From: an archaeon | Lineage (GTDB): Archaea; Iainarchaeota; Iainarchaeia; Iainarchaeales; 1-14-0-10-31-34 | Length of the DNA: 42,202 nt | Assembly: GCA_043819075.1 (NCBI GenBank) | Contig: JBDRFE010000003.1 | Coordinates: 1 to 42,202, forward strand | Reading direction: 5' to 3' | Part shown: piece after piece, positions 13,845 through 38,475 of the stretch | Numbering within the stretch: the first letter of the stretch is position 1 | How the letters are laid out: each line of letters begins with the position of its first letter | Translations under genes and position numbers: made by a program | Notes under the pieces: model-generated | What the model was told of the DNA's origin: nothing | The model's input: only the letters and a program-made list of their open reading frames with translations | The model's database searches: none

Positions 13845-13845
13845 A

Positions 13846-15224: not shown

Positions 15225-15274
15225 AGCAAAAGCAATCCTTTTTAAACAATTAATTCCTTTTTTTGTGTGATTAA

Positions 15275-20219: not shown

Positions 20220-21437
20220 TCAAAGAATGGTTGGAACAGGGACTGGGATAATAAATTTTCCTTTAAAGCCTTTTTCTTTTAGTTTTGGGATAATTATGTC
20301 TTTTAGATTCCAAGACAAAAGCAATGCATATTCTGGCTGGTCAAAAAAAATGCTGGATTCTTCCACTACTTTAATATGCATTCCAGGAGAATATTTTCCG
20401 ACTTTAAGGTTCTGCTTTTCAGCAAGATAATCAAGAATGTCTGACCCTATCATACAATAATTAAGCAACGTGTTTCCTTTTGCCGGAGCCCCAATACCCA
20501 CAATATGATTTCCTTTTTCTTTTATTGAAAAAAGAATGTCTCTTAATTTTTTTCTGTTTTCTGAAACTTTTTTTGCAAAATCATCAAAAGTTTTTTTTGA
20601 ATACAATCCTGCTTTTTCTTCTTCTTCAAGTATTCTTGAAACATTTTCTGATATTCTATAAGAGCCTTTTCTGCACGCATAAACTCTCAGTGAACCTCCA
20701 TGAGTTGGAATTCTTTCAGTGTCAAATACCTGCATTCCGTATTTTTCAAACAAACGAATCAGAGGTTTCAGCAAATAATACCTTAAGTGTTCTGCATAAA
20801 TTGAATCATATTCCATTTTTGAAATCATGTCTGCCAGGTAATGGGATTCTTCAACAAAAATTCCGTCATCTTTCAGCAAAAGCTTTATTCCATTCATAAA
20901 AGAATCTAATTCCTCTACATGTGCAAAAACATTTGTTGCAGTAATAACACTTGCTTTTCCATAATCCTGCAAAATTTTTTTTGCTGTTTTTTCATCAAAA
21001 AATTCCCTTAAAGTGGGAATGTTTTTTTCCAGTGCAAGTTTTGCTGATTCTGAAGGGTCAATTCCTAAAACTTTTAGTTCAAAAGGAAGAAAGTTTTCAA
21101 GCAATGTTCCGTCGTTTGAGCCGATGTCAATAACAAAATCTTTAGAGGAAAGATTGAATTGCTCGGTTAATTTTTTTGCTAAAGCAGAAAAATTTTTTAC
21201 TAGTTCCCCACTTGAACCAGTTGTATAAACAAAAGAGTCAGTAAACAATAATTTCGGGTCAAGTGCATGGCCTAACTGGACTAATTTGCAATTGTCGCAG
21301 AAAAAAACATTTATTAGGCATTTTACCTCTTTTTTGCTTAATTCGTTTTCATTAAGGAAACCATCGCTTGGAGGCAGACTCCCTAAAGACAAAAATTTAT
21401 GTAATTTTTTGTTAGAGCAAATCATGCATTTCATCAT
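20220..21437 (-). CDS. NDP-sugar C-methyltransferase family protein, copy 1
   Basis: N-terminal Zn knuckle (CMIC...CDNCKLVQL), DIGSNDG, NVFAHV, YAEHLRYY, HGGSLR, GAPAKGNTLLNY, LLSWN. Confidence 0.88.
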   Translation of the reverse strand: MMKCMICSNKKLHKFLSLGSLPPSDGFLNENELSKKEVKCLINVFFCDNCKLVQLGHALDPKLLFTDSFVYTTGSSGELVKNFSALAKKLTEQFNLSSKDFVIDIGSNDGTLLENFLPFELKVLGIDPSESAKLALEKNIPTLREFFDEKTAKKILQDYGKASVITATNVFAHVEELDSFMNGIKLLLKDDGIFVEESHYLADMISKMEYDSIYAEHLRYYLLKPLIRLFEKYGMQVFDTERIPTHGGSLRVYACRKGSYRISENVSRILEEEEKAGLYSKKTFDDFAKKVSENRKKLRDILFSIKEKGNHIVGIGAPAKGNTLLNYCMIGSDILDYLAEKQNLKVGKYSPGMHIKVVEESSIFFDQPEYALLLSWNLKDIIIPKLKEKGFKGKFIIPVPVPTIL

Positions 21438-21448
21438 AAAACCTAATT

Positions 21449-22429
21449 TTATTTTTTTTCCTGAAAAAAATTCTTATACCATTCAAATGTTTTTTTTACT
21501 CCATCCTCTAATTTTACTTTTGGCTTGAAGCCTAAAGCAGACAATTTTGTTGTGTCAGGACATCTTCTTTTCACGCTTCCTTCAGGCGCTGGAAGGATTT
21601 TTATTTTAGGGCTTGCGCCAGAAATTGCAAAAAGCTTTTTTGCCAAATCAATTATTTTTATTTCTTCATCGCTTCTTCCTATATTTATGGTTTTTGTTCT
21701 TGTTTTGTTGTTTTCCATTACCAGCTTTGTTGCTTTCACTGCATCTTCAATAAAACAAAAAGTCCTTGTTTCTTTTCCTCCAAAAATCTTGAACGGGTTT
21801 TCTTTTTTTTCTATTCTTTCAATGAACTGCGGAATAACGTGTTCTGTTCCCATTCTTGGGCCGTAAACATTATGATATCTTACAATAGAATAATCCATTT
21901 TATACAGGTGATTGTATGAATGAATTGCAACCTCTGACATTATTTTTCCTGCCCCATAAGACCATCTGGGGTTTGAAGGATCATCAATGCTTAAAGGAAT
22001 TTCTTCCGGAGTAGGAATAGGAAAATTTTCTTTCATTAATTTCAGTGTGCCTGCATATGTTTCTGAACTAGAAGAAAAAAGGAGTTTTCCTTTTTTGCTT
22101 TCAATAAACCAGTCAAGCATGTTTATTGTTCCTATAATTCCTACTTTGATTACTTTATCTGGGATTTTATAAAAGTTTTCTGTGCCGTTTATTGCAGCCA
22201 GATGATAAACAAAATCATATTTTTCTAATTCAGAGAATTCATTTTGGTTTGTAAGGTCAATTTTCAGGAAGGAAACGTTTTTGTTTTCAATGGCTTTCTG
22301 GAACTCTGAATCTTTTTTTCCTCTCTCAAAATTGTCTGCTATTGTAACAGTATATTCTTTTGCAAGCTCTCTGGCAAGATGTAATCCTATAAATCCTGCC
22401 CCTCCTGTAACAAGCGCTTTTTTTTGCAT
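21449..22429 (-). CDS. NAD-dependent sugar epimerase/dehydratase (UDP-glucuronate decarboxylase-like extended SDR)
   Basis: TGGAGFIG, HLAA, SSSETY, RWSYGAGK, RYHNVYGPRM, TRTFCF, RRCPD. Confidence 0.85.
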   Translation of the reverse strand: MQKKALVTGGAGFIGLHLARELAKEYTVTIADNFERGKKDSEFQKAIENKNVSFLKIDLTNQNEFSELEKYDFVYHLAAINGTENFYKIPDKVIKVGIIGTINMLDWFIESKKGKLLFSSSSETYAGTLKLMKENFPIPTPEEIPLSIDDPSNPRWSYGAGKIMSEVAIHSYNHLYKMDYSIVRYHNVYGPRMGTEHVIPQFIERIEKKENPFKIFGGKETRTFCFIEDAVKATKLVMENNKTRTKTINIGRSDEEIKIIDLAKKLFAISGASPKIKILPAPEGSVKRRCPDTTKLSALGFKPKVKLEDGVKKTFEWYKNFFQEKK

Positions 22430-22484
22430 AGAATAAATATCTAATAAAACGGTTTTTTAAAGCATTTAGCCAAAACAAAAAATG

Positions 22485-22501
22485 AACTAGAATTGTACCA
22501 A
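22485..22501 (+). promoter_or_regulatory. Copy of the recurrent intergenic motif (AACTAG)WATTGTACCAA
   Basis: AACTAGAATTGTACCAA is 16/17 identical to 33628-33644. The core also occurs at 39514-39524 and, with one mismatch, at 23643-23653. Confidence 0.5.
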
Positions 22502-22574
22502 AACCAATAAAATAATGAATTTATATAAATTTTAGCGTGTAATCTTATTTAGGTTGCATATTTTTGGTGATTTG

Positions 22575-23633
22575 TTGCTTCAGAAAAAAAAAAGTCTTTT
22601 ATTGAATACTGTGAAAAGAAACGGCTTGTTTGGAATTGCAAATCTTGCTTTAAGGCATTACCAGCAAAATAAAATGCTTGATAAAGTGAATTACAATCCA
22701 ACTGCATTGCAGATTGAAATAACTACTGCCTGCAATTTGAAGTGCACTATGTGCGAGCATAGTTTCATGCAAGAGATTGGAAAAAACTTAAATTTTTCTG
22801 AATTCAAGAAAATAATTGACGAAAACAAAAATGTCCAAGTAATTAACCTTACAGGAATCGGGGAATCGCTTCTTAACCCCGAATTCATTGAAATGGTAAA
22901 ATACGCCAAAAGCAAGGGCATTTATGTCTGGTTTAATGATAATTTTACTTTAATGAACCGGGAAAAAGCTGAAAAGTTAATTGATTTGGGTGCTGATTTC
23001 ATTATTCTTTCACTTGATGGCGCAACAAAAGAAGTTTACGAAAAAATCCGGGGCGGGGCAAACTTTGAAAAAGTCACTGCAAACTTTGCAGGACTTAGGG
23101 AATTAAGAGATAAAAAAAACCTTTCAAACCCAAAACTCGGAATAAGCATGGTTGTGCTGAAAGAAAATTACAAAGAAATAGAAAAAATGGTTGAGCTTGC
23201 AAAAGAACTTAAAGCTGACAATTTAATGTATTCAAGCATTGTCCTTTCTGACAATACAGGAAATCTTTCTTTAGGGAATTTAGAGGAAAAAGAAACCATG
23301 CCTTTTGTTGAATCAGGAAAAAAAACTGCTGAAGAACTGAAAGTGAATGTAATTGCCTGGCCTAATGTAAAGCTCAAAATAACAGAAAAAACCGGTTGTG
23401 CTTATCCTTGGCTTAATCCTTACATTGGCTACAATGGAAATGTATTGCCTTGCTGTTTTATTCCCCAGATGGCTAACGCAAGAATGAAAGAGGAAAACAT
23501 TATGGGAAACATATTCAAAGAGCCATTGTATAAGATATGGAATGGAAAAAAATACGTTGAATTCAGGAAAAAAATAAAAACAAAAAATCCTCCAGTATCA
23601 TGCAGGACTTGCTCTAAATTTTATGGGCAGTAA
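22575..23633 (+). CDS. Radical SAM protein with C-terminal SPASM/twitch domain, copy 1
   Basis: CNLKCTMC, GIGESLL, SLDGATKEVYEKIR, CAYPW...GNVLPCC...MGNI...IWNG...CRTC. Start placed at a TTG after GGTGA (uncertain). Confidence 0.88.
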   Translation: MLQKKKSLLLNTVKRNGLFGIANLALRHYQQNKMLDKVNYNPTALQIEITTACNLKCTMCEHSFMQEIGKNLNFSEFKKIIDENKNVQVINLTGIGESLLNPEFIEMVKYAKSKGIYVWFNDNFTLMNREKAEKLIDLGADFIILSLDGATKEVYEKIRGGANFEKVTANFAGLRELRDKKNLSNPKLGISMVVLKENYKEIEKMVELAKELKADNLMYSSIVLSDNTGNLSLGNLEEKETMPFVESGKKTAEELKVNVIAWPNVKLKITEKTGCAYPWLNPYIGYNGNVLPCCFIPQMANARMKEENIMGNIFKEPLYKIWNGKKYVEFRKKIKTKNPPVSCRTCSKFYGQ

Positions 23634-23699
23634 AAAAACAGGTATTGAACCAAATTAATATTAAAATTGTTTTAGACACTTAATGTACGAGGTTTAAAG

Positions 23700-24941
23700 A
23701 TGAATCAAAAAATTGTCAGTGTTATTGGAATCGGAAGGGTTGGCCTTCCGATGTGCTTGAGTCTTGCTGAAGCAGGATACAAGGTTTTTGGAATAGATGT
23801 AAGAAAAGAATATTTGGAAAAAATTAAGAAAAAAGAAATGCCTTTTGTGGAAGATAACGCACAGGAACTGCTTGAAAAGCATGTTAATGTTAATTTTTTT
23901 CCTTCAACTGATATAAAAAAAATTGAAGAATCAGGTTATATTGTTTTGACTATTGGAACTCCGGTTGATGAGCATTTGAATCCTGATTACAGTCAGATAC
24001 AAGCAGTGGCAAAAAACATAATCAAGCACTTGAAAAAAAATCACATCATAATTCTTCGTTCAACTGTTTCTCCAGGCACAACAGAATATTTAAAGGATTT
24101 AATTGAAAAAGAAACAGGAATGATAGCCGGAAAAGATTTTTTTCTGGCTTTTTGCCCTGAAAGAATCGCGCAAGGGAATGCAATAGAGGAGACAAAAGAG
24201 ATTCCACAGATTGTTGGGGGAATAGACGAAAAAAGTTCAGAGAAAGCAGTTGAATTTTTTAGGCCTTTTACTAAAGAACAGATTGAAACTGATGCAAAGA
24301 GCGCTGAACTGGCAAAAATTTTTACTAATATGTACAGGTACATTAACTTTTCTATTGCAAATGAATTCATGATTCTGGCAGAAGAGCATGAAAGAGACAT
24401 TTATGAAATAATTCATTTGATCAATCACAATTATAAAAGAGGAGGAATAAAACAGCCTGGCTTTGCTGCTGGGCCATGCCTTTACAAAGACGGCTTTTTT
24501 CTTGTCAACACAATGCCGTTCAATGAATTAATTTCAGTGAGCTGGAAAATAAATGAAACGGTTCCGTTATACTTGCTGAAAAAAATTAAGTCAAAAACAG
24601 AACTAAAAAACAAAAAAGTTGTGTTGCTTGGAATGTCTTTCAAGGCAGACAATGATGACACAAGAAATTCCTTGAGTTTTAAAATAAAGAAAGCATTAGA
24701 AAGAGAAAATGCCTTGGTTGAATGCCATGACCCTTTAGTTGAAGGATTCAACAGCAAAAGCGCTGAAGATGCAATAAAAGATGCAGATGTAATTATTATT
24801 GGAACAAACCATTCTGAATACAAAAAGCTTTCGCTTGAAAAAATAAGAAAGCTTTCTAAAAAAAACTGTATTGTCTGTGATATATGGAATGTTCTGGGAA
24901 AAAATAAAATAATTTATTTTGCAAGTGAACAAAAAAAATGA
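23700..24941 (+). CDS. UDP-glucose/GDP-mannose/UDP-ManNAc dehydrogenase family nucleotide-sugar dehydrogenase
   Basis: GIGRVGLP, TIGTP, RSTVSPGTT, FCPER, AELAKIFTN, AGPCLYKD, LGMSFKADNDDTRNS. Confidence 0.92.
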   Translation: MNQKIVSVIGIGRVGLPMCLSLAEAGYKVFGIDVRKEYLEKIKKKEMPFVEDNAQELLEKHVNVNFFPSTDIKKIEESGYIVLTIGTPVDEHLNPDYSQIQAVAKNIIKHLKKNHIIILRSTVSPGTTEYLKDLIEKETGMIAGKDFFLAFCPERIAQGNAIEETKEIPQIVGGIDEKSSEKAVEFFRPFTKEQIETDAKSAELAKIFTNMYRYINFSIANEFMILAEEHERDIYEIIHLINHNYKRGGIKQPGFAAGPCLYKDGFFLVNTMPFNELISVSWKINETVPLYLLKKIKSKTELKNKKVVLLGMSFKADNDDTRNSLSFKIKKALERENALVECHDPLVEGFNSKSAEDAIKDADVIIIGTNHSEYKKLSLEKIRKLSKKNCIVCDIWNVLGKNKIIYFASEQKK

Positions 24942-26047
24942 GAATACTGTATATTACTTCTGTTTTGGGAGATATCGGCGGAAGCGAAATTTACTGCAGG
25001 GATATAATAAAAGAAATGCTAAGGAAAGGGCATAAAGTTTTAATTGCAAGCACTGAACCATATGACTTTAAGCACAAAAACGCTGAATTCATGCAGATCC
25101 CTGTTTTTGGCAATCATGCATTCCATAAATTCACTGCCCCTTTGTTTTACAGGGGAGTTGTGAAAAAAGCAATGGAATTCAAGCCAGATGTAATTCAGAG
25201 CCACAGCAATTGTTTTATGGGCTGGATTGGAGACAAAGTCAAAGAAAAATTAAAGGTTCCTCATGTTCTTTTAATTGAAATGATTTCAGCAAAAAACAAT
25301 AATCTTCATACTAAAACAATTTATCAATGCGAAAAGTTTCTGCTTCCTAAATTAAAATACGACAAAATTGTTGTCTGGACTGAAAACATGAAGAAAAAGT
25401 TTTTGCTTCATTGGGGAATTAAAAAAGAAAAAATTGAAGTGATTCCTGCCGCATTAAACAAAGAAAATTATAATCTGAATGCAAGCGGGAAAAAGATTAA
25501 AGAAAAATATGGAGAGCATTTGATTGTTTCGATTAAAAGCCTTTGGACAACAAATGTTTTGGGCCTAAAATATATTGTAAAAGCAATGAAGTATGTTAAA
25601 GCAAAACACCCTGAATACAAATATTTGTGCATTGGCCCGGGAGACAGCAGTTCATTGAAGAAAATTGCAGTAGAAGAAGGAATTGAAGATGTTGTTTTTT
25701 TTCCTGGAAGCGTTTCAGACAAAGAAAAGCAGGAATATTGGGCTGCAACAGAGATTGCACCTCATTCTTACGTGTATGAATTTTCCACTTCAATTTCTTT
25801 GCTGGAGTTTCTGGCAATGGGGAAAGCCTGTGTCATAACTGATATTGGAGCAGTAAGAGAGTACTTAAAAGATGCTGCTTTGATTGTTAAAGCAGAAGAT
25901 GCAAAAGCCATGGGAGAAGGAATAAATAAGCTGATTGAAAACAAGGAATTAAGAAAAAGCCTTGAAAAGAAAGCAAGAAAATTGTTTGAAGAAGAATATT
26001 CAATTGATTCAACTGTCAGCAGACTGGAAAAAATTTATTCGGCTTAA
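24938..26047 (+). CDS. Glycosyltransferase family 4 (GT-B)
   Basis: GGSEIY, PDVIQSHS, ExxxxxxxE motif in YEFSTSISLLEFLAMGKACVITDIG. Confidence 0.9.
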   Translation: MRILYITSVLGDIGGSEIYCRDIIKEMLRKGHKVLIASTEPYDFKHKNAEFMQIPVFGNHAFHKFTAPLFYRGVVKKAMEFKPDVIQSHSNCFMGWIGDKVKEKLKVPHVLLIEMISAKNNNLHTKTIYQCEKFLLPKLKYDKIVVWTENMKKKFLLHWGIKKEKIEVIPAALNKENYNLNASGKKIKEKYGEHLIVSIKSLWTTNVLGLKYIVKAMKYVKAKHPEYKYLCIGPGDSSSLKKIAVEEGIEDVVFFPGSVSDKEKQEYWAATEIAPHSYVYEFSTSISLLEFLAMGKACVITDIGAVREYLKDAALIVKAEDAKAMGEGINKLIENKELRKSLEKKARKLFEEEYSIDSTVSRLEKIYSA

Positions 26048-26955
26048 TTTTCTTTTTCCATTTCAAATGGCGGGCTGAATTTTGGTTCTTTGAATGGAAC
26101 AAAAACCGATTTTTTTCTTTTTGCTCTTTCTTTTAATATCATTTTAATGTCTTTTATGTTGTTCCAGTAAGCTTTTATCAGCCAGAAAAACCTGCCGTCT
26201 TTGATGCTTTGCAGTAAAATCAATCCCATTCCTGGAACAAATCTCAGCAAGTCTATTAACCCTAAATTGAAAAAAAACGAGCGCAAGCAATGAGTATTCA
26301 ATAAAATATAATGGTTTTTTGCTTTCATTCCTTTTCTTGAATCCTGCGAAGAATAATGCACAACAATGCATTTACTGCATTCAATTATTTTATATCCTTT
26401 TTTTCTTGCCCGAAAATTCCAGTCGGCTTCCTCCCCATAAATAGGAGAAAAGTGTTCTGCATCAGTAAAGCCTATTTCCTGAATAAATTTTTTTTTTGTT
26501 ATCCAGCCTACAGGCAAAGTTAACTTTTCTTTGTTTGGTTTCTGTTTTATTTCTTCAATTAATTTTTTGTCTTTGAATTTTTCAGGAAAAACCTCTTTTA
26601 CTCCTACAACCACAAATTTTTCATTTGAATCAATTGTTTTGATTAATTCTTCAAGCCAGTTTTCCGTCACAAAAGCATCGTTGTTTAAATGAATTACATA
26701 GAAGCCTTTTGCTTCCCTGTAGCCTTGGTTTAAAGCATAAGGAAAGCCTTTGTTTACCTTGTTTTTGATTATTTTCAGGTTTTTTAGCTTGCTGAATTCT
26801 TTTTCTAGTTTTTCAATGCTTTTGTCTTTGCTTCCATTGTCAACCAAAATTATTTCATAAGGGAAAATTGTGTTTTTTACCACTGATTCAATGCATTGTT
26901 TTGTCAAGTCAAAAGAGTTCCAGGTTGTAATTACAATTGAAGTAAGTTTATCCAT
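26044..26955 (-). CDS. Glycosyltransferase family 2 (GT-A)
   Basis: SIVITTWN, VDNGSKD, NKGFPYALNQG, LNND, YGEEADWNFR. Confidence 0.9.
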   Translation of the reverse strand: MDKLTSIVITTWNSFDLTKQCIESVVKNTIFPYEIILVDNGSKDKSIEKLEKEFSKLKNLKIIKNKVNKGFPYALNQGYREAKGFYVIHLNNDAFVTENWLEELIKTIDSNEKFVVVGVKEVFPEKFKDKKLIEEIKQKPNKEKLTLPVGWITKKKFIQEIGFTDAEHFSPIYGEEADWNFRARKKGYKIIECSKCIVVHYSSQDSRKGMKAKNHYILLNTHCLRSFFFNLGLIDLLRFVPGMGLILLQSIKDGRFFWLIKAYWNNIKDIKMILKERAKRKKSVFVPFKEPKFSPPFEMEKEN

Positions 26956-26961
26956 AAAAAA

Positions 26962-28227
26962 TCATTTATCATTAAGCTGGGTTTGATTTTCAATTATCCT
27001 TGGAAAAGGCAAAGGAATAATGTATTTTCCGCCTTTACGCTGAAAGTTTTTTGTTTTTTCAATTAATTCTTTTGCAATAGTCCATGCAAAAAGTACAAGG
27101 TAATCAGGCTTTTCTTTTTCAAGAACACTGCTTTGAACTATTGGAATCCTGTTTCCTGCAAAACTTTTGTTTTGTTTTGTTGGCGCATCATCAACAATAA
27201 AATCAATGTAATTGCTTCCAATTCCGCAGTAGTTAAGCAAAGTCCCTGCTTTTGCTGCCGCACCATAACCTGCAATTTTCTTTTTTTCTTTTTTTAGTTT
27301 CAGCATTAACTGCAGAAAAGCTATTTTTACTTCTAAAGTTTTTTCTGCAAAAGCCAAATAAGTGTTTAAATCATACAGTTTGTTTTTGTTTTCCAGCTCC
27401 AAAAAAGAGTTAATGTTTTTTTCCTGTATTTTAATTTTTTTGTTTTCTGAATGCTTTGCAAAAACCCTTATTGAGCCTCCGTGAATTGGAATTTCCTGCA
27501 CATCAAAAACAGCCATTTTTTCTGATTCAAGCAATTCCAGCAATGGCTTTACCAAAAAATAAGACAAGTGTTCATGGTAAATTGTATCAAACTCGTTTTT
27601 TTCAATTAAATGCAAAGCATAAGGGAACTCTAAAATGAAAATTCCATCTGAATCCAAAACTTTTTTTACTGCCTTCAGGAAACCGTGAACATCATGTACG
27701 TGGGCAAAAACATTTGTTGCGGCAACCACTTTGGCTTTTCCTTGCTCTCTGATTACTTTTTCTGCGACTTTTTCATTCCAGAATTCAACCAGAGTCGGTA
27801 TTCCTTCTTCTTCGGCTATTTTGGCTAAATTTACTGCAGGGTCAACTCCTAAAACCCTGAAGCCAAGCTTCCTGAACTCTTTGAGCATGCACCCGTCATT
27901 GCTTGCAATGTCTAATACAAGAGAATCTTTTGTGTGAGGAAAAAATTCTTTTATGTATGCTGCCATTAAAGCAAAATGTTTCTGGAAAGTAGTGGAAATT
28001 GATGTCCTGTAAGCGTAATCAGAGAAAAGCAGTTCAGGGTCAACCACAACACTTAATTGTGAAAGAAAGCATTTATTGCATAAAACAACCTCTAAAGGAA
28101 AAAACAAGTCTGTTGTTGTTTTATTGGCTTCAACTAAATTGTTTGCTAAAGGCAAAGTTCCCAAACTCAAATATTTTTTCAGTTCTTTTGAACCGCAAAT
28201 CCTGCATTCTTCAAGCTTGAAAAACAA
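26962..28227 (-). CDS. NDP-sugar C-methyltransferase family protein, copy 2
   Basis: CRIC...CNKCFLSQL, DIASNDG, NVFAHV, FDTIYHEHLSYF, HGGSIR, GYGAAAKAGTLLNY. Start placed at TTG 28227 (uncertain). Confidence 0.88.
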   Translation of the reverse strand: MFFKLEECRICGSKELKKYLSLGTLPLANNLVEANKTTTDLFFPLEVVLCNKCFLSQLSVVVDPELLFSDYAYRTSISTTFQKHFALMAAYIKEFFPHTKDSLVLDIASNDGCMLKEFRKLGFRVLGVDPAVNLAKIAEEEGIPTLVEFWNEKVAEKVIREQGKAKVVAATNVFAHVHDVHGFLKAVKKVLDSDGIFILEFPYALHLIEKNEFDTIYHEHLSYFLVKPLLELLESEKMAVFDVQEIPIHGGSIRVFAKHSENKKIKIQEKNINSFLELENKNKLYDLNTYLAFAEKTLEVKIAFLQLMLKLKKEKKKIAGYGAAAKAGTLLNYCGIGSNYIDFIVDDAPTKQNKSFAGNRIPIVQSSVLEKEKPDYLVLFAWTIAKELIEKTKNFQRKGGKYIIPLPFPRIIENQTQLNDK

Positions 28228-28305
28228 AAAACCCCTTTCCTGAACTATTAGATACCAAAACAAGCAAACAACACTTTAAAAATATTTTTAGGAAACAAGT
28301 GTTTT

Positions 28306-29256
28306 ATGGGAGAAAAAATTGTGGTTACAGGCGGGGCAGGATTTATTGGCTCAACTTTAATTGAAGCGTTACTGGAAAAATATGATTATGAAATAACTGT
28401 TTTTGACGATTTTTCTACTGGATACATGAAAAACCTTGATTCTGTTAAGGGAAAAATAAAAATTGTTGAAGGGGATATCTGCAATTTTAATGAAATAAAT
28501 AAAGTGTTGGCTGAAACAAAATTTGTTTTTCATATGGCTGCACTCAGTTATGTTTCTGAATCAATAAAAGAGCCTGAAAAATACAATAAGGCAAACATTG
28601 ACGGGACATTAAATGTGCTGATGTCAGCAAAAAATAATTCTGTTGAAAAAGTTTTGTTTCCCAGCAGCTGCATTGTTTACGGCGAAACAAAAACAATTCC
28701 TATTCCTGAAAGCGAGCCATCAAACCCTAACACACCTTATGGTTTGACAAAACAAGTGGGAGAATTTTACTGCAAGTTTTTCACTGAAGTGCATGGCCTT
28801 GACACGATTTGCCTTAGGATATTCAATGCTTATGGCCCAAGAATGCAGAACAGAGTGATGTCAATTTTTGCTAACCTCATGATTCAAGGCAAGGAGCCAA
28901 AAGTCAGCGGGAATGGAAGACAGACAAGAGATTTTGTTTTTGTTGATGACATTGTTCAGGCATTTATTCTGGCAATGAATGCAAAAAAGAGCTTGAGCGG
29001 AAAATCGTTTAATGTTGGAACAGGGAAAGGAACAGACCTGAATGAATTAATTGAGAAAATAAACAATGACCTTGGAACTCACATTGAACCTGTTCATGGA
29101 GAAATTGCAACAGGAGAAATTGATGCAATTATTGCTGACACCAGATTGGCTGAAAAAGAATTGGATTTTAAAGCAAAGATTAATTTGAATGAAGGATTAA
29201 AGCCAACAATAAAATGGCTAAAAGAAAAAAACAGCGCCTATTTTTTTAAGAAATAA
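28306..29256 (+). CDS. NAD-dependent epimerase/dehydratase (UDP-glucose/GlcNAc 4-epimerase-like SDR)
   Basis: VTGGAGFIGS, DDFSTG, HMAA, PYGLTK, LRIFNAYGPR, GRQTRDFVFV. Confidence 0.9.
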   Translation: MGEKIVVTGGAGFIGSTLIEALLEKYDYEITVFDDFSTGYMKNLDSVKGKIKIVEGDICNFNEINKVLAETKFVFHMAALSYVSESIKEPEKYNKANIDGTLNVLMSAKNNSVEKVLFPSSCIVYGETKTIPIPESEPSNPNTPYGLTKQVGEFYCKFFTEVHGLDTICLRIFNAYGPRMQNRVMSIFANLMIQGKEPKVSGNGRQTRDFVFVDDIVQAFILAMNAKKSLSGKSFNVGTGKGTDLNELIEKINNDLGTHIEPVHGEIATGEIDAIIADTRLAEKELDFKAKINLNEGLKPTIKWLKEKNSAYFFKK

Positions 29257-30218
29257 GATATTAAGCCTACTCCTGCCCCAAAAGACATTGCCAAAATAAA
29301 AATGTAATATATTACTATAGAGTAAATTAAAAATAAAGGGCCGCCTTCTTTAAAAAGAAACAAGTAAAATTTTAAGTCCGTCAGAATAAAAATAAAAAAC
29401 AAAAACAGAAAAACATAAGCAAAGACAGGACAAAAGAAAGTTAAAATTAAGGAAACAAAAGATAAGCCGGCAAAAATAGCTCCCAACCCTTTGTTCGGAG
29501 TTACATAATTTGAATCAAAGCTTTTTCTTTTCAGCATCAGTGGAACCCACATCATAGACCTTTTGAAAAGTTTTTTTACCAGAGTCCAAAAAGGAGAGCG
29601 ATAATGGTTATGATCAAACTGGATTTTCTTATCCAGAAGAATCTTGTATTTCTTTACTATTCTGTGGCCCATTTCATAGTCTTCAACATCAGCATCTGCA
29701 TAAGTTGTATCAAAACCATTCATTTCAAAAAATATTTTTCTTTTAATTGAGCCGCCAGTTACCATAAAAATCGAAATAAATTTTTTGTTAAGATTGTCCT
29801 GATTGTGCCACCAGAAAATCTGGAGGTTTCTGAATTTGTCAACCCAACCTGCTCCCCTAGAAAACTTTGAAAAAGTTCCGCATACACATGCAACTTCTGG
29901 GTTTTCTTCGTAATCCTGAATCATTCTTTCCAAAACATGCTTTTCAAGTACAGCATCAACATCAACAAAAACAAGAATGTTTCCTTTTGCTTTTTCTGCC
30001 CCTAAATTTCTTGCAACTGCAGGACCTGAGTTCTTTTCAAGCTTTATTATTTTGCAGGGAAATTTTTTAACAATGTCAAGTGAGTTGTCTGTTGAGCAGT
30101 CATCAATCACTATAACTTCGTCAGGTTTCAAGCTCTGATTGTAAACCCCCTCAAGTGTTTTTTCTATTATTTTTTCTCCGTTATGCAGAGGGATAATAAC
30201 AGATGTTTTAAAAATCAT
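29238..30218 (-). CDS. Glycosyltransferase family 2 with C-terminal transmembrane helices
   Basis: SVIIPLHN, IDDCSTD, GPAVARN, FVDVD, GFD...VEDYE; hydrophobic C-terminus. Confidence 0.9.
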   Translation of the reverse strand: MIFKTSVIIPLHNGEKIIEKTLEGVYNQSLKPDEVIVIDDCSTDNSLDIVKKFPCKIIKLEKNSGPAVARNLGAEKAKGNILVFVDVDAVLEKHVLERMIQDYEENPEVACVCGTFSKFSRGAGWVDKFRNLQIFWWHNQDNLNKKFISIFMVTGGSIKRKIFFEMNGFDTTYADADVEDYEMGHRIVKKYKILLDKKIQFDHNHYRSPFWTLVKKLFKRSMMWVPLMLKRKSFDSNYVTPNKGLGAIFAGLSFVSLILTFFCPVFAYVFLFLFFIFILTDLKFYLFLFKEGGPLFLIYSIVIYYIFILAMSFGAGVGLISYFLKK

Positions 30219-30273
30219 AGCTAAAATTAGGGCAAACTAATTAAAAATAAATTGCACATTAAAATCCAAAAGA

Positions 30274-31356
30274 ATGAAACTCCTGAATACTTCAAGACTC
30301 TTTTTTAATAAAGGCATGCCATCTTACCTAATTTATATAATCAGTGCAAAATGCAATGCAAAATGCAAGTTCTGCTTTTACTGGCAAAACATAGATAACT
30401 TCCAGAAGAACTCCCACCTTGAATTAAAGCTCGATGAAATAGAAAAATTTGCAAAAAGCCTTGAAAAAATTCAGTATGTTACTCTTGGCGGGGGAGAGCC
30501 TTTTTTAAGAGAAGACTTGCCTGAAATATGCAAATTATTTCATGACTACAATGACGTGCAGCAGATAACAATTCCAACAAACGGGATGTTTACAGACAGA
30601 ATAATTTCCTATGTAAAAAAAATGATTGAATACTGCCCTAACACTTATTTCAGAGTTTCATTGTCTTTAGATGCGATAGGAGAAGAACACGACAAAGTAA
30701 GAGGTGTAAAAGGGATATTCAAAAACCTTACTAAAACATATGAAAGGTTAAGCGAATTAAGAAAAACAACAAAAAGGCTGAACATTGACATCAGTTCTGT
30801 TTTTTCTTCATTTAACCAGGACAATTTTAAAGAATTAATTGATTATGTGCATGAGAACTTTGATGTAGACAACCATAACTTTCTTTTTGTAAGGGGAAAC
30901 CCAAGAGAAAAAGTTTCAAAGAATGTTTCAGTAGAAAAATACAGTGAAGCAAGAAAATATTATGATTCATTAAAAAAAAGAAATGAGAACAGGCCTTTCT
31001 CTCCTGTGATGAGGGCAATGTACGAGACTGCAATGGAAAATATTGAAAAGACAGTAAAACACGAAAAATGTGTTATTCCGTGCAGGGCCACAATAAACCA
31101 TTTAATAAGCGTGGATGAAACAGGAAACGTTTATCCCTGCGAGCTTCTACCAGAAAAAAAATTAGGGAACTTAAGAGATTATGATTTTGATTTAAGGAAA
31201 ATGATTGAAACAGAAAAAGCAAAAAAAACCAAAAAATGGATTCTTGACAGCAAATGCCACTGCACTTGGGAATGTGCAATGAATGCTAACTTACTTTATG
31301 ATGTAAAATCTTATCCTAAGCTCCTGAAAAAAACTGTTGAATATTCTATCAAATAA
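30274..31356 (+). CDS. Radical SAM protein with C-terminal Cys-containing (SPASM/twitch-like) domain, copy 2
   Basis: CNAKCKFC, GGGEPFLR, TNG, SLDA...HDKVRG, CRA...GNVYPCE...LGNL...CHCTWEC. Confidence 0.88.
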   Translation: MKLLNTSRLFFNKGMPSYLIYIISAKCNAKCKFCFYWQNIDNFQKNSHLELKLDEIEKFAKSLEKIQYVTLGGGEPFLREDLPEICKLFHDYNDVQQITIPTNGMFTDRIISYVKKMIEYCPNTYFRVSLSLDAIGEEHDKVRGVKGIFKNLTKTYERLSELRKTTKRLNIDISSVFSSFNQDNFKELIDYVHENFDVDNHNFLFVRGNPREKVSKNVSVEKYSEARKYYDSLKKRNENRPFSPVMRAMYETAMENIEKTVKHEKCVIPCRATINHLISVDETGNVYPCELLPEKKLGNLRDYDFDLRKMIETEKAKKTKKWILDSKCHCTWECAMNANLLYDVKSYPKLLKKTVEYSIK

Positions 31357-31571: not shown

Positions 31572-31629
31572 CAACTCAAAAAAAAACGTATATTTAAATC
31601 ATTTGCTCAGCGTTTTTTTATTAGTCATT

Positions 31630-33597
31630 ATGGGATTCAAAGATAGAATTAAATCTGTGGACAAAAAGCATTTGTTTATCCTGTTGCTGATTTTTTTGCT
31701 TGCCTTTGGAATAAGGGCTAATTTAATGAAATACGAATTATTCTTTGAATTTGACACTTACTGGCATGCAAGAGTCGGCTCTTATATCTTGCAGGGAACG
31801 GGTGTTCCGGACAGAGACCCTTTGGCTTATTATCAGATGGGCGGTTCGCCAATTGGATGGAAAGTTGCCCCAGTGTTCTGGTATCTTTCAACCGGAATTT
31901 ATAGCGTGGCTACTTTGGGGTTGTTTGGCTATAACAAGGAATTATGGATTGCGTTTGTGAAATTCCTGCCGGCTTTTTATGGAGCATTAATCTGTATTGC
32001 AATGTATTTTTTGTTCAAAGAAATTTATGACAAAAAAGCAGGCTATGTTGCTTCTTTTATTGCAGCTGTTACTCCTGCATTTGTTTACAGGACAATGGCA
32101 GGACAGTTTGAAGATGATGCTTTAGGCTTTTTGTGGATGGTAATAGGGTTTTACTTTTTTGTGAAAGCAGTAAAAGAAATGAATTTCAATAAAGAGTCAA
32201 TAAAAAATGCATTGCTTTCTGCATTGTTTTTTGGGGCAATGGCTTGGACCTGGGAAATGTTCATGCTTATTCCGATGATTCTTGTAATGTATGTTATTAC
32301 TACAATTGTTTTAATGTGGTTTAACAGGATTGAATCAGGAAAAATAATGCATTTGATTAAAGTTTTTCTGATTGTTTTTGTCTTGTTTGGGGTTATCGCC
32401 ACTGCAAAAGATGACGGCCAGTGGATTAAAAGAGATATAGGCTATGTTTCAAATTATCTTCCTGTTAATCAGGAAAACATTGACAGGTTCACCGGAGTGG
32501 ATGGAAGATCAGGAATATTCGGAATGACTGTTGGAGAAGAAAACACCGGAATACAGTTTTTTGGGACAAAATATAATGCATTGATTTTGTTTCCGGTGCT
32601 TGCATTGCTGATAGTATTTTACAGGTTTATTTTGTATCCGATAATAAATCTTGTTTTTAACCTGAAAAACAAAAACTCATGGAATCAGTCTGATTTTTTT
32701 GCTTTTATTGTGTTTTACTGGGTTGCAATAACTTTGTTCATGGCTTGGAGCAAATTAAAGTTCACTTACACTTTTGGCTTGGCGGTGGCAATCGGTGCAG
32801 GGCTTGTAGCAAACTGGGTTTTTGAGTCAATGAAATCAAGGACTTTATTTGAAAAAAAAATCATCGGGGTTGCATTGGGTTTCATGCTGTTAATTGGAAT
32901 TGCTTCTGGCACTTTTTTTATGACACAAAACGCTCCAAATATTGAATACACTTTTGGATGGAAACCTGCATTAAACTGGCTGAAAGAAAACACTCCAAAA
33001 GATGCTAAAATGTTTAACTGGTGGGATGAAGGCCATTGGATTACTTTTATCGGAGAAAGAGCTGTAATAGAAGATAACAGGAACATTGACTTGAATGCAG
33101 ACATTGATGCCGCAAAATTTATTTTAAGCACTTCAGAAGAAGAAGCGTATTCTTTAGTGCAAAAATACGGGTCAGATTACCTGATTTTCGGTTCAGACCT
33201 TCTGGAAAAACAGAATTCAATGGTAATTTATGCTTTTTTGGATGAACCGGAAAAAAAGAATGCATTGCTTGGAACTTATTTTGAACAAACGTATAATTGT
33301 TCTCCAAGCACTGACAAATTAAGCGGAATAACTTCATACAATTGTTCAGGAAATGTTTTAAGTGAACCACAAATTAATTCTTTGCCCACAAAATATATTA
33401 CCCAATCAAACCAGTTGTTGAATGAAAGGCTTCCTGTGTTTATTTACAGGGAAAAAGACAATTCAAGGCTTTACATGTTTAATGCTTCTGCAAACCAGGC
33501 AATGATTACAAGAATTTGGTTTGAAGACCCGACAATAACAAAGTTTCCAATAGTTTATGAGAACGCAGGCGTAAAAATTTTTAAGGTAGTGAAATAA
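31630..33597 (+). CDS. aglB: Oligosaccharyltransferase AglB (STT3 family)
   Basis: Multi-TM N-terminal domain with EFDTYWHAR, RTMAGQFEDD and TVGEE; WLKENTP...NWWDEGHWI; DNRN. Start moved to ATG 31630. Confidence 0.95.
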   Translation: MGFKDRIKSVDKKHLFILLLIFLLAFGIRANLMKYELFFEFDTYWHARVGSYILQGTGVPDRDPLAYYQMGGSPIGWKVAPVFWYLSTGIYSVATLGLFGYNKELWIAFVKFLPAFYGALICIAMYFLFKEIYDKKAGYVASFIAAVTPAFVYRTMAGQFEDDALGFLWMVIGFYFFVKAVKEMNFNKESIKNALLSALFFGAMAWTWEMFMLIPMILVMYVITTIVLMWFNRIESGKIMHLIKVFLIVFVLFGVIATAKDDGQWIKRDIGYVSNYLPVNQENIDRFTGVDGRSGIFGMTVGEENTGIQFFGTKYNALILFPVLALLIVFYRFILYPIINLVFNLKNKNSWNQSDFFAFIVFYWVAITLFMAWSKLKFTYTFGLAVAIGAGLVANWVFESMKSRTLFEKKIIGVALGFMLLIGIASGTFFMTQNAPNIEYTFGWKPALNWLKENTPKDAKMFNWWDEGHWITFIGERAVIEDNRNIDLNADIDAAKFILSTSEEEAYSLVQKYGSDYLIFGSDLLEKQNSMVIYAFLDEPEKKNALLGTYFEQTYNCSPSTDKLSGITSYNCSGNVLSEPQINSLPTKYITQSNQLLNERLPVFIYREKDNSRLYMFNASANQAMITRIWFEDPTITKFPIVYENAGVKIFKVVK

Positions 33598-33806: not shown

Positions 33807-34802
33807 GTGATTCAAATAATTCTTTCTTTTTTGCTAGTTTTTTCTGTTAGTTTTGGCGTTACCTTTATTATAACCCCTTTTATTATCAGGAGAATGCATT
33901 TAAGGGGGATTACAGGAAAAGACATGAACAAGCTTGACAAGCCAGACATAGCTGAAATGGGTGGAATAAGCGTAATATTTGGTTTCAGTTCAGGAATTAT
34001 TACCTCAATTTTTGTTTCAACTTACCTTGGGCCAATTCAGATTAATTTAACTGTTTTCCTTGCAATGTTCATGACAGTCCTGCTCATCGGTTTTATTGGT
34101 TTGGTTGATGACTTAATTGGCTGGAGGAAAGGAATAAGGCAGTGGCAGCATGCATTATTCCCTGTTTTCGCCGCACTGCCTTTAATGGCTATTTCTGTTG
34201 GAGACACTAATATGTCAATTCCTTTTATTGCAATAGTTGATTTAGGAATATTTTATTCATTGATTATGGTGCCTTTAGGGATTACCGGAGCATCAAATGC
34301 ATTTAACATGCTTGCAGGAATGAATGGATTAGAAGCAGGATTAGGAACATTAATTATTTCAACGCTCATTTATTTTAATTTGGTTTCAGGAAACATTGAA
34401 GTAGTGTTATTCCTTATTGCAATGCTTGCAGCAGTGATTGCTTTCCTTAAATTCAACTGGTTGCCTGCAAAAATTTTTCCAGGAGACTCTTTGACTTTAA
34501 TGCTTGGAGCAGCAATTGCTGCATCAGTTATTGTTGGAAACATTGAAAAAATCGGCGTGATGTTAATGGCATTATTTTTTGTTGAACTTGGTTTCAAAGC
34601 AAAACATAACTTTCAGAGCCATTGCTTTGGGTTGCCGCAAAAAGACGGAACATTAAAGCCAAGGCCTGAAGGAGGCTCTTTAACGCAATGGATTATGAAA
34701 AAAGGAAGCTTTACGGAAAAAAAAGTTACAGGAATACTTTTGGGAACACAGGCTGCAATCTGTGTTGTGACAATAATTTTAATTAATTCAGGGATAGTAT
34801 GA
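33807..34802 (+). CDS. aglH: UDP-GlcNAc:dolichyl-phosphate GlcNAc-1-phosphotransferase (AglH/Alg7; MraY-like family)
   Basis: GKDMNK...IAEMGG, GLVDD, NAFNMLAGMNGLEAG, FNWLPAKIFPGD; multi-TM; GTG start behind GGGGGAG. Confidence 0.92.
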   Translation: MIQIILSFLLVFSVSFGVTFIITPFIIRRMHLRGITGKDMNKLDKPDIAEMGGISVIFGFSSGIITSIFVSTYLGPIQINLTVFLAMFMTVLLIGFIGLVDDLIGWRKGIRQWQHALFPVFAALPLMAISVGDTNMSIPFIAIVDLGIFYSLIMVPLGITGASNAFNMLAGMNGLEAGLGTLIISTLIYFNLVSGNIEVVLFLIAMLAAVIAFLKFNWLPAKIFPGDSLTLMLGAAIAASVIVGNIEKIGVMLMALFFVELGFKAKHNFQSHCFGLPQKDGTLKPRPEGGSLTQWIMKKGSFTEKKVTGILLGTQAAICVVTIILINSGIV

Positions 34803-35248
34803 AGTTATGCCTTGCCTGCTCTACCGGAGGGCACTTGACTGAAATGGTTTTGCTGACAGAAGATTACTGTAAAAGGCATGAGCATTTTTTTATTTCATTC
34901 AAGAGAATTGATTCAGTTGAATTAAGCAAAAAACACAAAGTTTTTTTTGTTGTTGACCCAAAAAGAAATCCTTTTAGTTTAATCCACAATTTTATTCAGA
35001 GCTTTTTTATTTTACTGAAAGAAAAGCCTGATGCAGTGATTGCAAACGGCGCAGGAGTTTCACTGCCGGCATTATTCATTGCAAAAATAACTGGAAAAAA
35101 AACCCTTTATGTTGAGCCATTCTGCAATATTAATGCGCCATCGCTTACGGGAAAAATTGCTTACAGGTTTGCAGACCTTTTTTTAGTGCAATGGAAGGAA
35201 AACCTGAAATTTTATCCCAAAGCAAAATTTAAGGGGGGGTTATTCTGA
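34799..35248 (+). CDS. alg14: Alg14-like (PssD/Cps14F family) glycosyltransferase acceptor subunit
   Basis: CLACSTGGHLTEM, KEKPDAVIANGAGV, YVE, SLTGK, ADLFLVQW; ATGA overlap with aglH. Confidence 0.9.
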   Translation: MKLCLACSTGGHLTEMVLLTEDYCKRHEHFFISFKRIDSVELSKKHKVFFVVDPKRNPFSLIHNFIQSFFILLKEKPDAVIANGAGVSLPALFIAKITGKKTLYVEPFCNINAPSLTGKIAYRFADLFLVQWKENLKFYPKAKFKGGLF

Positions 35249-35712
35249 TTTTTGTAATGACCGGAACCCATAATCAGGGATTTGACAGGCTGATTAAAGC
35301 AGTTGACAGGCTCGCGGAAAACTTTGAAGAAAAATTTTTTATTCAGACAGGAAACTCTGAAGTAAAACCAGAAAACTGTGAATGGAAAAAATTCCTTTCT
35401 GAAAGCGATAGAATAAAAAAAATTGCTGAAAGCTCTGTTGTAATAACCCACGGGGGCTCTGGCTCAATAATTGACTGCCTTAAAAACGGGAAAAAAACTA
35501 TTGTAGTGCCAAGGGAAAAAAAATTCAAAGAACACGTAAACAACCATCAGTTTGAATTAGCTGAAGCGCTTGGCAGGCAGGGAAAAATAGTGGCATGCAG
35601 CAGCTTAGAAGAACTGGATAAAGCAATAGAAAAGGCAGGGAAAATTAATACTGAAATTAAAAGCAGGAACACTGGGATAATAAAAGAAATAGAAGATTTT
35701 TTAGGGGAATAA
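35245..35712 (+). CDS. alg13: Alg13-like (PssE/Cps14G family, GT28 C-terminal) glycosyltransferase donor subunit
   Basis: GTHNQGFDRLI, IQTG, VITHGGSGSI, VVPR...EHVNNHQFE. Start proposed at CTG 35245 (see findings); the first ATG is 35257. Confidence 0.9.
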   Translation: MIFVMTGTHNQGFDRLIKAVDRLAENFEEKFFIQTGNSEVKPENCEWKKFLSESDRIKKIAESSVVITHGGSGSIIDCLKNGKKTIVVPREKKFKEHVNNHQFELAEALGRQGKIVACSSLEELDKAIEKAGKINTEIKSRNTGIIKEIEDFLGE

Positions 35713-36708
35713 ATGCAAAAAAAAACAATTCTTTCTTGGGTTTTAAGCTTAATTCTTGTAATAATAATTGTTTCATTGATTGATTCAAAAGAAGTAATAA
35801 AAGGAATAACAAAAATTGGATTAACTAATTTTGTTTTATTAAGCGCATTTTATTCTATTGGATATGTTTTCAGGGCATTGAGATGGAAGGCAATTCTTAA
35901 GCCGATTGCAAGGATTTCATTAAAAGAATCTTTTTTTATCACAAACACCGGCTTTCTTGTCAACGCAGTCCTGCCTGCAAGGGCAGGCGAGATTGCAAGA
36001 GCATATATTCTTGCAAAAAAAAAGAATTTAGGAAAAATAAAGAGTTTTTCAACTGTAATGCTTGACAGGGTAATAGACGGGATGACATTATTCTTGTTTT
36101 TTGTTGTCTCTGTCATTATTATTCCTGTTCCGGAAGAATTCAAGGCAATGCTTTTGGTTCCGGCATTAATTTTTCTCTCAGCTTTTGCCTTTTTTTTTAA
36201 GCCAGACAAATTCAGGTTTATGGCAAAGCCAATAACAGCTTTTTTCCCTTCAGTGAAAGGAAAAATCGAATACGTTTTTCATGAAGTGAAAGAATCAGGA
36301 AAAATTTTTTATTCAGAAAAAAAACAGTTTTTTCTTGTATTCTTTTATTCGGGAATTGTATGGGTTGTTGAAGCACTGCTGTTTTATTTTACTGCAAGAA
36401 TAATCGGAACAGAACTGTCCCTGCCGCTTGTTTTTTTGCTTGTTGTTGTAACAGGTTTTGCCGCAATGATTCCAAGCGCACCAAATTATATCGGCACATT
36501 TGAAGCAGGATTTATTGTTTTTTTTACGGCATTCGGCTTAAGCAATAACTCGGCTGTATCTGTTGCAGTTACAGTGCATTTGATTGAAACAGTTGTAATT
36601 CTTGTGTTAGGAGTAATTTCAATGAACAGGCTGGGTTTGTCTTTTAAAAGTTTTTCTGAAATAAATTTTCAGGAAATAAAAAACAAAAGGAAAGTGAACC
36701 AAAAATGA
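35713..36708 (+). CDS. Flippase-like membrane protein (UPF0104 / lysylphosphatidylglycerol-synthase TM region)
   Basis: RALRW, GFLVNAVLPARAGEIARAY, STVMLDRVID, IPSAPNYIGTFE; multi-TM. Confidence 0.88.
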   Translation: MQKKTILSWVLSLILVIIIVSLIDSKEVIKGITKIGLTNFVLLSAFYSIGYVFRALRWKAILKPIARISLKESFFITNTGFLVNAVLPARAGEIARAYILAKKKNLGKIKSFSTVMLDRVIDGMTLFLFFVVSVIIIPVPEEFKAMLLVPALIFLSAFAFFFKPDKFRFMAKPITAFFPSVKGKIEYVFHEVKESGKIFYSEKKQFFLVFFYSGIVWVVEALLFYFTARIIGTELSLPLVFLLVVVTGFAAMIPSAPNYIGTFEAGFIVFFTAFGLSNNSAVSVAVTVHLIETVVILVLGVISMNRLGLSFKSFSEINFQEIKNKRKVNQK

Positions 36709-38411: not shown

Positions 38412-38475
38412 CTGAAATTATCATTTAAAAACAATCATTTAAAAAGTGTTGGAAAAACATTCTTTTGTGGTAAAG

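Follow-up and report, generated by a model that had tools for sequence, protein, structure and literature searches.

A nucleotide-sugar dehydrogenase, a decarboxylase yielding a 4-keto-pentose nucleotide and a C-methyltransferase are described for the aminosugar of maduropeptin in Actinomadura madurae (MdpA2/MdpA3/MdpA4/MdpA5; PMC10951976), and as far as the accessible part of that account goes, this order of steps is therefore not new. Here we analyse a ten-gene block at positions 20220 to 31356 of the window, by which we mean the whole stretch of 42,202 nucleotides (contig C3 of genome G000, GenBank JBDRFE010000003.1) from a small uncultured archaeon of the Iainarchaeales whose assembly comprises 1.24 Mb in 75 contigs and is 90.6% complete. 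The block lies directly upstream of aglB, the gene for the oligosaccharyltransferase of archaeal N-glycosylation. Part of it, termed module A, likewise links a dehydrogenase, a decarboxylase-type short-chain dehydrogenase/reductase (SDR) and a C-methyltransferase. In the available sections of the maduropeptin report, the starting sugar is thymidine diphosphate (TDP)-glucose, an aminotransferase belongs to the cluster and the acceptor is an antibiotic (PMC10951976), whereas here the dehydrogenase is of the uridine diphosphate (UDP)-N-acetylhexosamine (HexNAc) type, a DegT gene is absent from the block, and the neighbours are glycosyltransferases (GT) of families 4 and 2 and aglB; the likeness is drawn from the described order of steps.

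N-acetylpentosamines are made in Bacillus cytotoxicus by a UDP-GlcNAc 6-dehydrogenase together with UDP-XylNAc synthase (UXNAcS; PMC5078965), and in the incednine pathway by IdnS2/IdnS3, a HexNAc dehydrogenase and a decarboxylating SDR (PMC11284099). Module A has the same pairing of a HexNAc dehydrogenase with a decarboxylase-type SDR, whereas the accessible texts describe a C-methyltransferase in neither of these routes. MtmC, TcaB9 and KijD1-type enzymes act on dTDP-4-keto-(di)deoxyhexoses for antibiotics. The two methyltransferases of the block (MT1 and MT2) share with these 3-C-methyltransferases (4rv9, 3ndi, 5t64) the full length, the domains, the zinc cysteines and the active-site residues, but the predicted substrate of MT1 is a 4-keto-pentosamine. 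C-methyl-branched sugars are also reported, in the parts of the sources at hand, from bacterial cell surfaces, namely the 3-C-methyl sugar virenose in Coxiella, 3-C-methyl-mannose in Helicobacter (PMC12961483) and the 3-C-methyl sugars cereose/cillose in Bacillus; unlike the predicted product of module A, these have hexose or 6-deoxyhexose skeletons and no link to AglB. Directly downstream of the block lie core genes like those of the archaeal AglH/Alg13-14/AglB system as outlined in a 2024 review (PMC11407970), in whose selected examples, so far as accessible, the methylated sugars of archaeal N-glycans are O-methylated or of unspecified type. A C-methyl sugar is named neither in the accessible parts of that review nor in those of a Nitrososphaerota glycoproteomics paper and a Nanobdella preprint. 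Our literature search, which left subscription literature mostly uncovered and did not use the predicted sugar by name, returned no report of C-methyl sugars in AglB-dependent archaeal N-glycans.

Architecture of the block and proposed pathway

All ten open reading frames (ORFs) of the block are intact in an ORF check of the window, and a Pfam search assigns them to two C-methyltransferases, one nucleotide-sugar dehydrogenase, two SDRs, two radical S-adenosylmethionine (SAM) proteins (rSAM1 and rSAM2), one GT4 and two GT2 enzymes:

20220..21437, minus strand: MT1, putative TcaB9/MtmC-type zinc-binding nucleoside diphosphate (NDP)-sugar C-methyltransferase of module A (PF08421/PF13489/PF08484; 4rv9, E 1e-73)
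21449..22429, minus strand: SDR1, module A, extended SDR of decarboxylase type from a separate subfamily (invariant residues in 66 sequences; profile matches)
22554..23633, plus strand: rSAM1, radical SAM/SPASM protein retained alongside module A in the phylum (PF04055+PF13186)
23700..24941, plus strand: nucleotide-sugar 6-dehydrogenase of UDP-HexNAc type, module A (TIGR03026 over cut-off; best PDB matches 4r16 and Cap5O)
24938..26047, plus strand: GT4 glycosyltransferase conserved with module A (PF00534/PF13439)
26044..26955, minus strand: GT2a, glycosyltransferase occurring with module A or B (PF00535)
26962..28263, minus strand: MT2, second putative NDP-sugar C-methyltransferase, module B (Pfam; 4rv9, E 1e-88)
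28306..29256, plus strand: SDR2, module B, GalE/WbpP-like SDR transcribed divergently from its partner MT2 (best PDB matches 6dnt, 4zrm and WbpP)
29238..30218, minus strand: GT2b, glycosyltransferase with C-terminal membrane segments, species-specific insert (PF00535)
30274..31356, plus strand: rSAM2, radical SAM protein, species-specific insert (PF04055)

An original prediction, made by a model from the letters of the window, had assigned the ten genes to the same enzyme classes, placed them directly upstream of aglB and read an RWSY...K motif in one SDR. The intact frames and the Pfam/NCBIfam and PDB matches agree with these assignments, aglB starts 246 bp past the end of rSAM2, and SDR1 carries PRWSYGAGK at residues 154-162. 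Because five genes stand on each strand, the ten cannot form one operon, and the six strand changes along the block mark it as a patchwork; the strands, together with the separate clades and separate partners of MT1 and MT2, also exclude one pathway for all ten genes. The GC content is even (0.32-0.35 vs 0.346 for the genome), and the phage hits all stand at 32% or less.

We propose, at a probability of roughly 45%, that the block sits between tbp and aglB as a variable inserted cassette, and that the two conserved modules it holds would make two different C-methyl-branched nucleotide sugars, destined for a surface glycan that is most likely the N-glycan of AglB. Six genomes of the phylum have a conserved module A, which comprises MT1, SDR1, the dehydrogenase, rSAM1 and GT4; module B consists of MT2 paired with SDR2.

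In module A, the dehydrogenase would oxidise UDP-HexNAc (UDP-GlcNAc, or UDP-ManNAc supplied by WecB) to the uronic acid, whereupon SDR1 would oxidise C4 and release CO2 to give UDP-4-keto-N-acetylpentosamine, and MT1 would enolise this ketosugar and methylate one of its carbons from SAM, most likely C3. The ketone would then be reduced or aminated, for which SDR1 itself, SDR2 and a DegT-like gene elsewhere in the island are candidates, and the product may be tailored by rSAM1. Because the dehydrogenase is of the UDP-HexNAc type, the product is predicted as likely to be a 2-acetamido-3-C-methyl-pentose nucleotide, isobaric with deoxy-HexNAc. In module B, the 4-keto sugar methylated by MT2 would be another one, whose ketone SDR2 would either form or reduce; a 4-keto-6-deoxyhexose could come from the Rml-like genes found on contigs C11 and C2. 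GT4 and GT2a would add the branched sugars to the polyprenyl-linked glycan begun by the AglH- and Alg13/14-like genes. The full chain of claims, in which module A is an undescribed three-enzyme route of small archaea and bacteria to 2-acetamido-2-deoxy-3-C-methyl-pentose that is put here, along with the second branched sugar from module B, on the AglB N-glycan, we consider unlikely as a whole.

Conservation of module A

Among 215 genomes of the phylum (about 0.5-1.5 Mb among those listed), orthologues of SDR1 (69-77% identity) and of the dehydrogenase (70-85%) are found in the same five relatives (G013, G014, G015, G019 and G045), each of which has an MT1-type gene, rSAM1 and GT4 beside them. 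Identities in these five are 59-78% for rSAM1 and 56-86% for GT4, and GT2a orthologues share 52-85%. An Atlas structure search with rSAM1 matched generic radical SAM/SPASM clusters only.

A GTDB collection baited with the dehydrogenase gave 93 confirmed loci, of which 80 were analysed; the co-occurrence table is dehydrogenase-baited only, as a metagenome scan baited with SDR1 yielded a single 1.2-kb contig. A C-methyltransferase is present in 23/23 loci with an SDR1-type gene (five from the phylum relatives and 18 titled Woesearchaeota or bacteria), adjacent and on the same strand in 21 of them, compared with 2/49 loci that carry an alternative SDR (motifs KIGGIGYFH and SSSMVFE) and 0/8 with neither SDR type. 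Both SDR types together were seen in none of the 80 loci. The SDR type, called from motifs and not from a tree, switches 6 times on the dehydrogenase tree (70 rows, after dropping 10 loci in which either SDR or the called dehydrogenase was lacking). Only 2 of these independent contrasts, 6 in all, fall on well-supported branches and a sign test is not significant, which tempers our proposal; the association of SDR1 with the C-methyltransferase is consistent, not statistically established. The co-location of orthologues and the 23/23 loci bear out, for MT1, SDR1 and the dehydrogenase, the link between these three enzyme types that had been suggested from the letters.

The 49 loci with the alternative SDR (within L026-L100) represent another unstudied combination: they join an SDR without the decarboxylase Glu to a dehydrogenase of the same clade, and are common in records titled Micrarchaeota, Woesearchaeota and Patescibacteria, near short GT2 and GT-C-like genes. 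Relatives of the dehydrogenase in Woesearchaeota and Micrarchaeota share 50-61% identity; they did not turn up in the search of the 215 genomes, which sets the phylum of the window apart from these two. Three loci (L052, L058 and L097) are titled 'uncultured Methanosarcinales', but the genome of L058 (G215) belongs to a phylum with genomes of 0.5-1.9 Mb and its dehydrogenase groups with Woesearchaeota, so that such titles look unreliable.

Linkage to aglB and the proposed glycan acceptor

The genes that follow the block are:

31603..33597, plus strand: aglB, oligosaccharyltransferase, single copy (PF02516, PF22627; WWDEG)
33807..34802, plus strand: AglH/Alg7-like GlcNAc-1-phosphate transferase (PF00953)
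34799..35712, plus strand: Alg14-like and Alg13-like genes, second core sugar (PF08660, PF04101)
35713..36708, plus strand: flippase-like membrane protein (PF03706; TIGR00374 over cut-off)
36705..38411, plus strand: membrane protein of 568 aa with PTPS-related/YfhO-like features, which may be a second transferase, of GT-C type (hydrophobic segments, cluster matches)
39619..41007, plus strand: WecB-like UDP-GlcNAc 2-epimerase, which may supply the dehydrogenase with UDP-ManNAc (PF02350)

AglB, with WWDEG at residue 473, is the sole STT3 match in the genome, and the window thus holds the parts of an AglB system, namely an STT3 protein with WWDxG, an initiating transferase and Alg13/14-like genes. 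AglB was present in 33/33 genomes searched (32 with PF08484, one of the domain families of the methyltransferases, plus G018). In 13/32 genomes (G109, whose aglB is a contig-end fragment, was left out), aglB has a C-methyltransferase match no more than 50 kb away on its contig, against 1.5 expected from contig sizes; the proportion is 9/10 among genomes in which the assembly reaches at least 35 kb around aglB. In G083 the gap is 45 kb. The clustering is thus beyond chance, and the linkage to aglB in relatives that the original prediction had made a touchstone is borne out, although the genomes are kin and not independent. The cassette abuts aglB in G000, G013, G014 and G015, while in the congener G012 the last 65 codons of MT1 remain directly upstream of aglB and the rest of the cassette is lost (L148:2407-2604, G012:C28), from which we infer that members of the genus can do without the block, which is tied to this position.

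The N-glycan as acceptor of the branched sugar has, in our estimate, slightly better than even odds. A competing account, which we hold to be somewhat unlikely, is that the branched sugars are made but bypass AglB, with polyprenyl monophosphate as their carrier and a GT-C-type protein, encoded by the 568-aa gene, passing them on to a lipid, to an O-linked site or to a separate polymer, so that adjacency to aglB would reflect only the gathering of all glycan genes there. Several observations weigh against our proposal or pull in this direction. The relatedness of the genomes makes the linkage test overstate its case, and one of the 13 linked genomes (G012) has only a remnant. In the 18 module A loci outside the phylum (stretches of up to 8 kb on each side), aglB was found in none, whereas YfhO/PTPS/PMT-like, that is GT-C-like, membrane proteins occur in 15 and a short GT2 in all 18; an AglB match was likewise found in neither of two bacterial host genomes with module A. 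The genome of the window itself has 15 GT2 matches and 2 Wzx-type flippases, so more than one glycan may be built, and its 568-aa membrane protein, without a Pfam match, has about 12 hydrophobic segments, weak matches to YfhO clusters and Atlas TM scores of 0.82-0.85 to PTPS_related clusters, and is conserved in the island across the phylum. Transfer by AglB, as first predicted, therefore stands unproven, the same module being found beside GT-C-like genes without aglB in bacteria. Speaking for the AglB N-glycan instead, the neighbours within the phylum are the soluble GT4 and GT2a, the short GT2 of those other clusters is absent in the five loci of the phylum, and the cassette abuts aglB in the four genomes named above. 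A GT-C step after flipping could, moreover, still extend an N-glycan, as is established for Alg3/9/12.

A 5'-open frame at window positions 2-2674 encodes a Cys/Thr-rich repeat protein. It contains 29 sequons, related copies are found on contigs C75, C59, C74 and C67, and it is a candidate for a surface glycoprotein that AglB would modify.

Substrate of the dehydrogenase

The best matches of the dehydrogenase are the Pyrococcus UDP-ManNAc dehydrogenase (4r16, 217.6 bits) and Cap5O (198.6 bits), with UDP-glucose dehydrogenases at 105.9 bits or below. Residues R155, R213 and R247 align to Arg152, Arg211 and Arg244 of the UDP-ManNAc group, and C260 was also read from the alignment with 4r16/Cap5O. 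According to the part of the structural paper at hand, Arg244 of UDP-ManNAc dehydrogenases binds the N-acetyl carbonyl, and Arg155, at the Cap5O Arg152 position, stands where UDP-glucose dehydrogenases typically have Phe (PMC4794789). This Arg and the bit scores lead us to reject a UDP-glucose dehydrogenase label; the AglM and TuaD models also scored the protein below cut-off. A HexNAc substrate has points to its disadvantage as well: the enzyme does not have Pro155, Glu207, His242 and His257 of the ManNAc group as given in the accessible text (PMC4794789), but Gln, Thr, Tyr and Pro, and it falls below the cut-offs of the UDP-ManNAc dehydrogenase equivalogs (263 vs 750 and 198.5 vs 459 bits).

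These four departures from group-specific positions, the maduropeptin precedent as far as its account is available (PMC10951976) and the fact that human UDP-xylose synthase (UXS1) is the best PDB match of the SDR1 profile would suit a module A acting on a plain hexose, from UDP-glucose through UDP-glucuronate and a 4-keto-pentose to a 3-C-methyl-pentose in the manner of maduropeptin. We give this version little weight, as it has against it the Arg in place of Phe, the bit scores and, on contig C11, a separate UDP-glucose dehydrogenase-like gene with a canonical UDP-xylose synthase-like gene. Given these C11 genes and the HexNAc-type dehydrogenase, UDP-HexNAc is predicted to be the more likely substrate than UDP-glucose, and we think it probable; the UDP-glucuronate intermediate of the original prediction is thus unsupported.

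SDR1 as a probable decarboxylase

Ser120, Glu123, Arg155, Trp156, Tyr158, Lys162 and Arg289 of SDR1 are invariant in 66 aligned sequences (the query and 65 of the 120 matches listed). The S/T-S-E motif, R-x-x-Y-x-x-x-K and the late Arg that mark decarboxylating SDRs of the UXS/ArnA type are all present, and are shared, with S-S-E, by human UXS1 and Pcryo_0617. In the PDB, the SDR1 profile matched human UDP-xylose synthase best (154.6 bits), followed by 8vr2 (151.8 bits), the Pcryo_0617 oxidoreductase/decarboxylase, which has about 28% identity to SDR1 and whose substrate we take to be a diacetamido-uronic acid; epimerases scored 140.2 bits or below. The residue set and profile matches are those expected of the decarboxylating SDR that had been foreseen for this block.

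Other results count against this assignment. SDR1 lies below the curated cut-offs for PRK11908 (UDP-4-keto-pentose/UDP-xylose synthase, 97.8 vs 294 bits) and ArnA PRK08125 (69.5 vs 777), and is thus predicted to work like the UXS/ArnA equivalogs but is not a member of them. In a fold search with the SDR1 model (pLDDT 90.5), epimerases matched as well as decarboxylases, with E values of 2e-26 to 2e-23 in both classes. Against the proposed pathway as a whole, SDR1-type genes are found with other dehydrogenase clades and no C-methyltransferase in five genomes of the phylum (G104, G093, G085, G167 and G166), and Bacillus and Azospirillum plasmids carry such genes without a C-methyltransferase and with DegT aminotransferases nearby. 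All considered, we judge decarboxylation by SDR1 reasonably probable from its residues and profile.

SDR1 could alternatively be a 4-epimerase or reductase, in which case MT1 would methylate a conventional 4-keto-hexose or 4-keto-6-deoxyhexose and the dehydrogenase would make an ordinary uronic acid. WecB and a HexNAc dehydrogenase are the usual pair for N-acetylmannosaminuronic acid, and their joint presence here, the Rml-like genes in the genome and the epimerases at the top of the SDR1 fold search, where the E ranges of both classes overlap, would fit such a scheme; the WecB-like protein scores 207.5 against a TIGR00236 cut-off of 210.15. This scheme is improbable in our view, since the invariant Glu123, Arg155 and Arg289 match the decarboxylases, and since, next to dehydrogenases of one clade, either the SDR1+MT1 pair or the alternative SDR is found, with 6 exchanges between them on the tree.

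Membership of SDR1 in the Bacillus UXNAcS subfamily is unsupported: of the two motifs compared, UXNAcS has LAAILGV and STSEVYG in the portion of its start available, against LAAINGT and SSSETYA in SDR1. In loci L011-L013 (G085, G167 and G166), the SDR1-type gene has a different dehydrogenase on one side and a radical SAM gene on the other (25-28% to rSAM1), and a C-methyltransferase was not found within the compared stretch.

The methyltransferases MT1 and MT2

Both MT1 and MT2 carry PF08421+PF13489+PF08484, that is, the zinc domain, the class I methyltransferase domain and PF08484 of this family, and over their full length their best PDB matches are MtmC, KijD1-type enzymes and TcaB9, with 4rv9 at E 1e-73 and 1e-88, respectively. 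Aligned to TcaB9, both keep the four zinc cysteines and the active-site Tyr, His and Tyr-x-Glu-His (C4, C7, C47, C50, Y71, H173, Y214, E216 and H217 in MT1), residues that presumably serve zinc binding and catalysis. It is thus likely that both are SAM-dependent NDP-4-keto-sugar C-methyltransferases, with the methyl position predicted at C3. That MT1 places the methyl group on C5 of the 4-keto-pentose and not on C3, leading in a roundabout way to an unbranched 6-deoxy-HexNAc, is very improbable: the family includes C5 methylases such as NovU and the methyl position cannot be read from the sequence, but all solved matches are 3-C-methyltransferases, in a comparison set that contained no C5 enzyme.

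MT1 and MT2 share 40% identity and fall in separate clades, which rules out a recent duplication; two further C-methyltransferase copies are encoded on contigs C2 and C11. In a FastTree phylogeny of 78 rows (without five duplicate loci and with only ORFs longer than 330 aa), the MT1 clade has 23 rows from archaea and bacteria (support 88), the loci besides those of the phylum relatives being titled Woesearchaeota or bacteria, and the MT2 clade has 10 rows (support 100), 8 of them labelled as adjoining an SDR2-type gene. MT2 is annotated with a TTG start, and the true start may lie downstream.

A third C-methyltransferase clade of 15 rows (support 100) includes L014:3102-4385 (G000:C11) and is often near a GMD-like SDR. 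Asp occupies the His181 position in 15 alignment rows and Cys/Val the Tyr222 position in 15, probably those of this clade, and a different substrate or mechanism is possible.

The NDP-sugar C-methyltransferase family is common in small archaea: PF08484 occurs in 33/215 genomes of the phylum and in 57/401 of another small-genome archaeal phylum (0.5-1.9 Mb; the count includes the unpublished G579), with none in four control archaea.

Module B and the inserts

All SDR2 orthologues have the motif S[ST]C[IV][IV]YG, with a conserved Cys after the catalytic Ser/Thr, and SDR2 is a candidate 4-keto generator or reductase. Within the compared stretches, G013 has module A without B, while G157 and G159 have module B without the MT1/SDR1 pair. 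The single pathway for both methyltransferases that had been proposed from the letters is thus not borne out, MT2 having an SDR partner of its own. The congeners G013, G014 and G015 lack GT2b and rSAM2 at this position, which rules both out as core parts and identifies them as species-specific inserts; no other match to rSAM2 was found at E 1e-15 among 1884 ORFs of the compared loci.

Implications

The chemistry is known from a bacterial antibiotic pathway, and for archaea it is a prediction. Should the proposal be correct, carbon-branched sugars would be added to archaeal protein glycans, and a defined three-enzyme assay would be at hand for an unstudied SDR/methyltransferase pair of small archaea and bacteria. 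By arithmetic from the formulae, the residue masses of a C-methyl-pentose (146.058) and an N-acetyl C-methyl-pentosamine (187.084) coincide with those of a deoxyhexose and a deoxy-HexNAc, respectively. The search for +14 Da sugars advised earlier would for this reason not be decisive, and mass spectrometry would misread the branched N-glycan sugar as deoxy-HexNAc, a warning for glycoproteomics. That the cassette has come and gone within a single genus suggests surface variation like O-antigen switching.

Other features of the island and the window

Further along the island, a cobalamin-binding radical SAM protein (L003:6616-8106 and relatives; L015:4307-5800; 11 members in one cluster) is a second possible route to sugar C-methylation. 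SDR3 (window 38446-39507; motifs YSSTNKVYG and HSPYGCSKG, which we take to resemble those of CDP-tyvelose 2-epimerase) is conserved in the island. Contig C18 (G000:C18:1-3836, L015) holds a second SDR3/wecB/GT2c copy with 81-87% nucleotide identity to window 38800-42201, and its SDR3 has a long stretch of identical protein to that of the window; the copy may be a duplicated or alternative island allele, or come from a co-binned strain. At window positions 11082-16792, a cluster of pyrB, pyrI, pyrC, pyrE and pyrF with an AMP phosphorylase-like gene represents more nucleotide biosynthesis than many small archaea retain.

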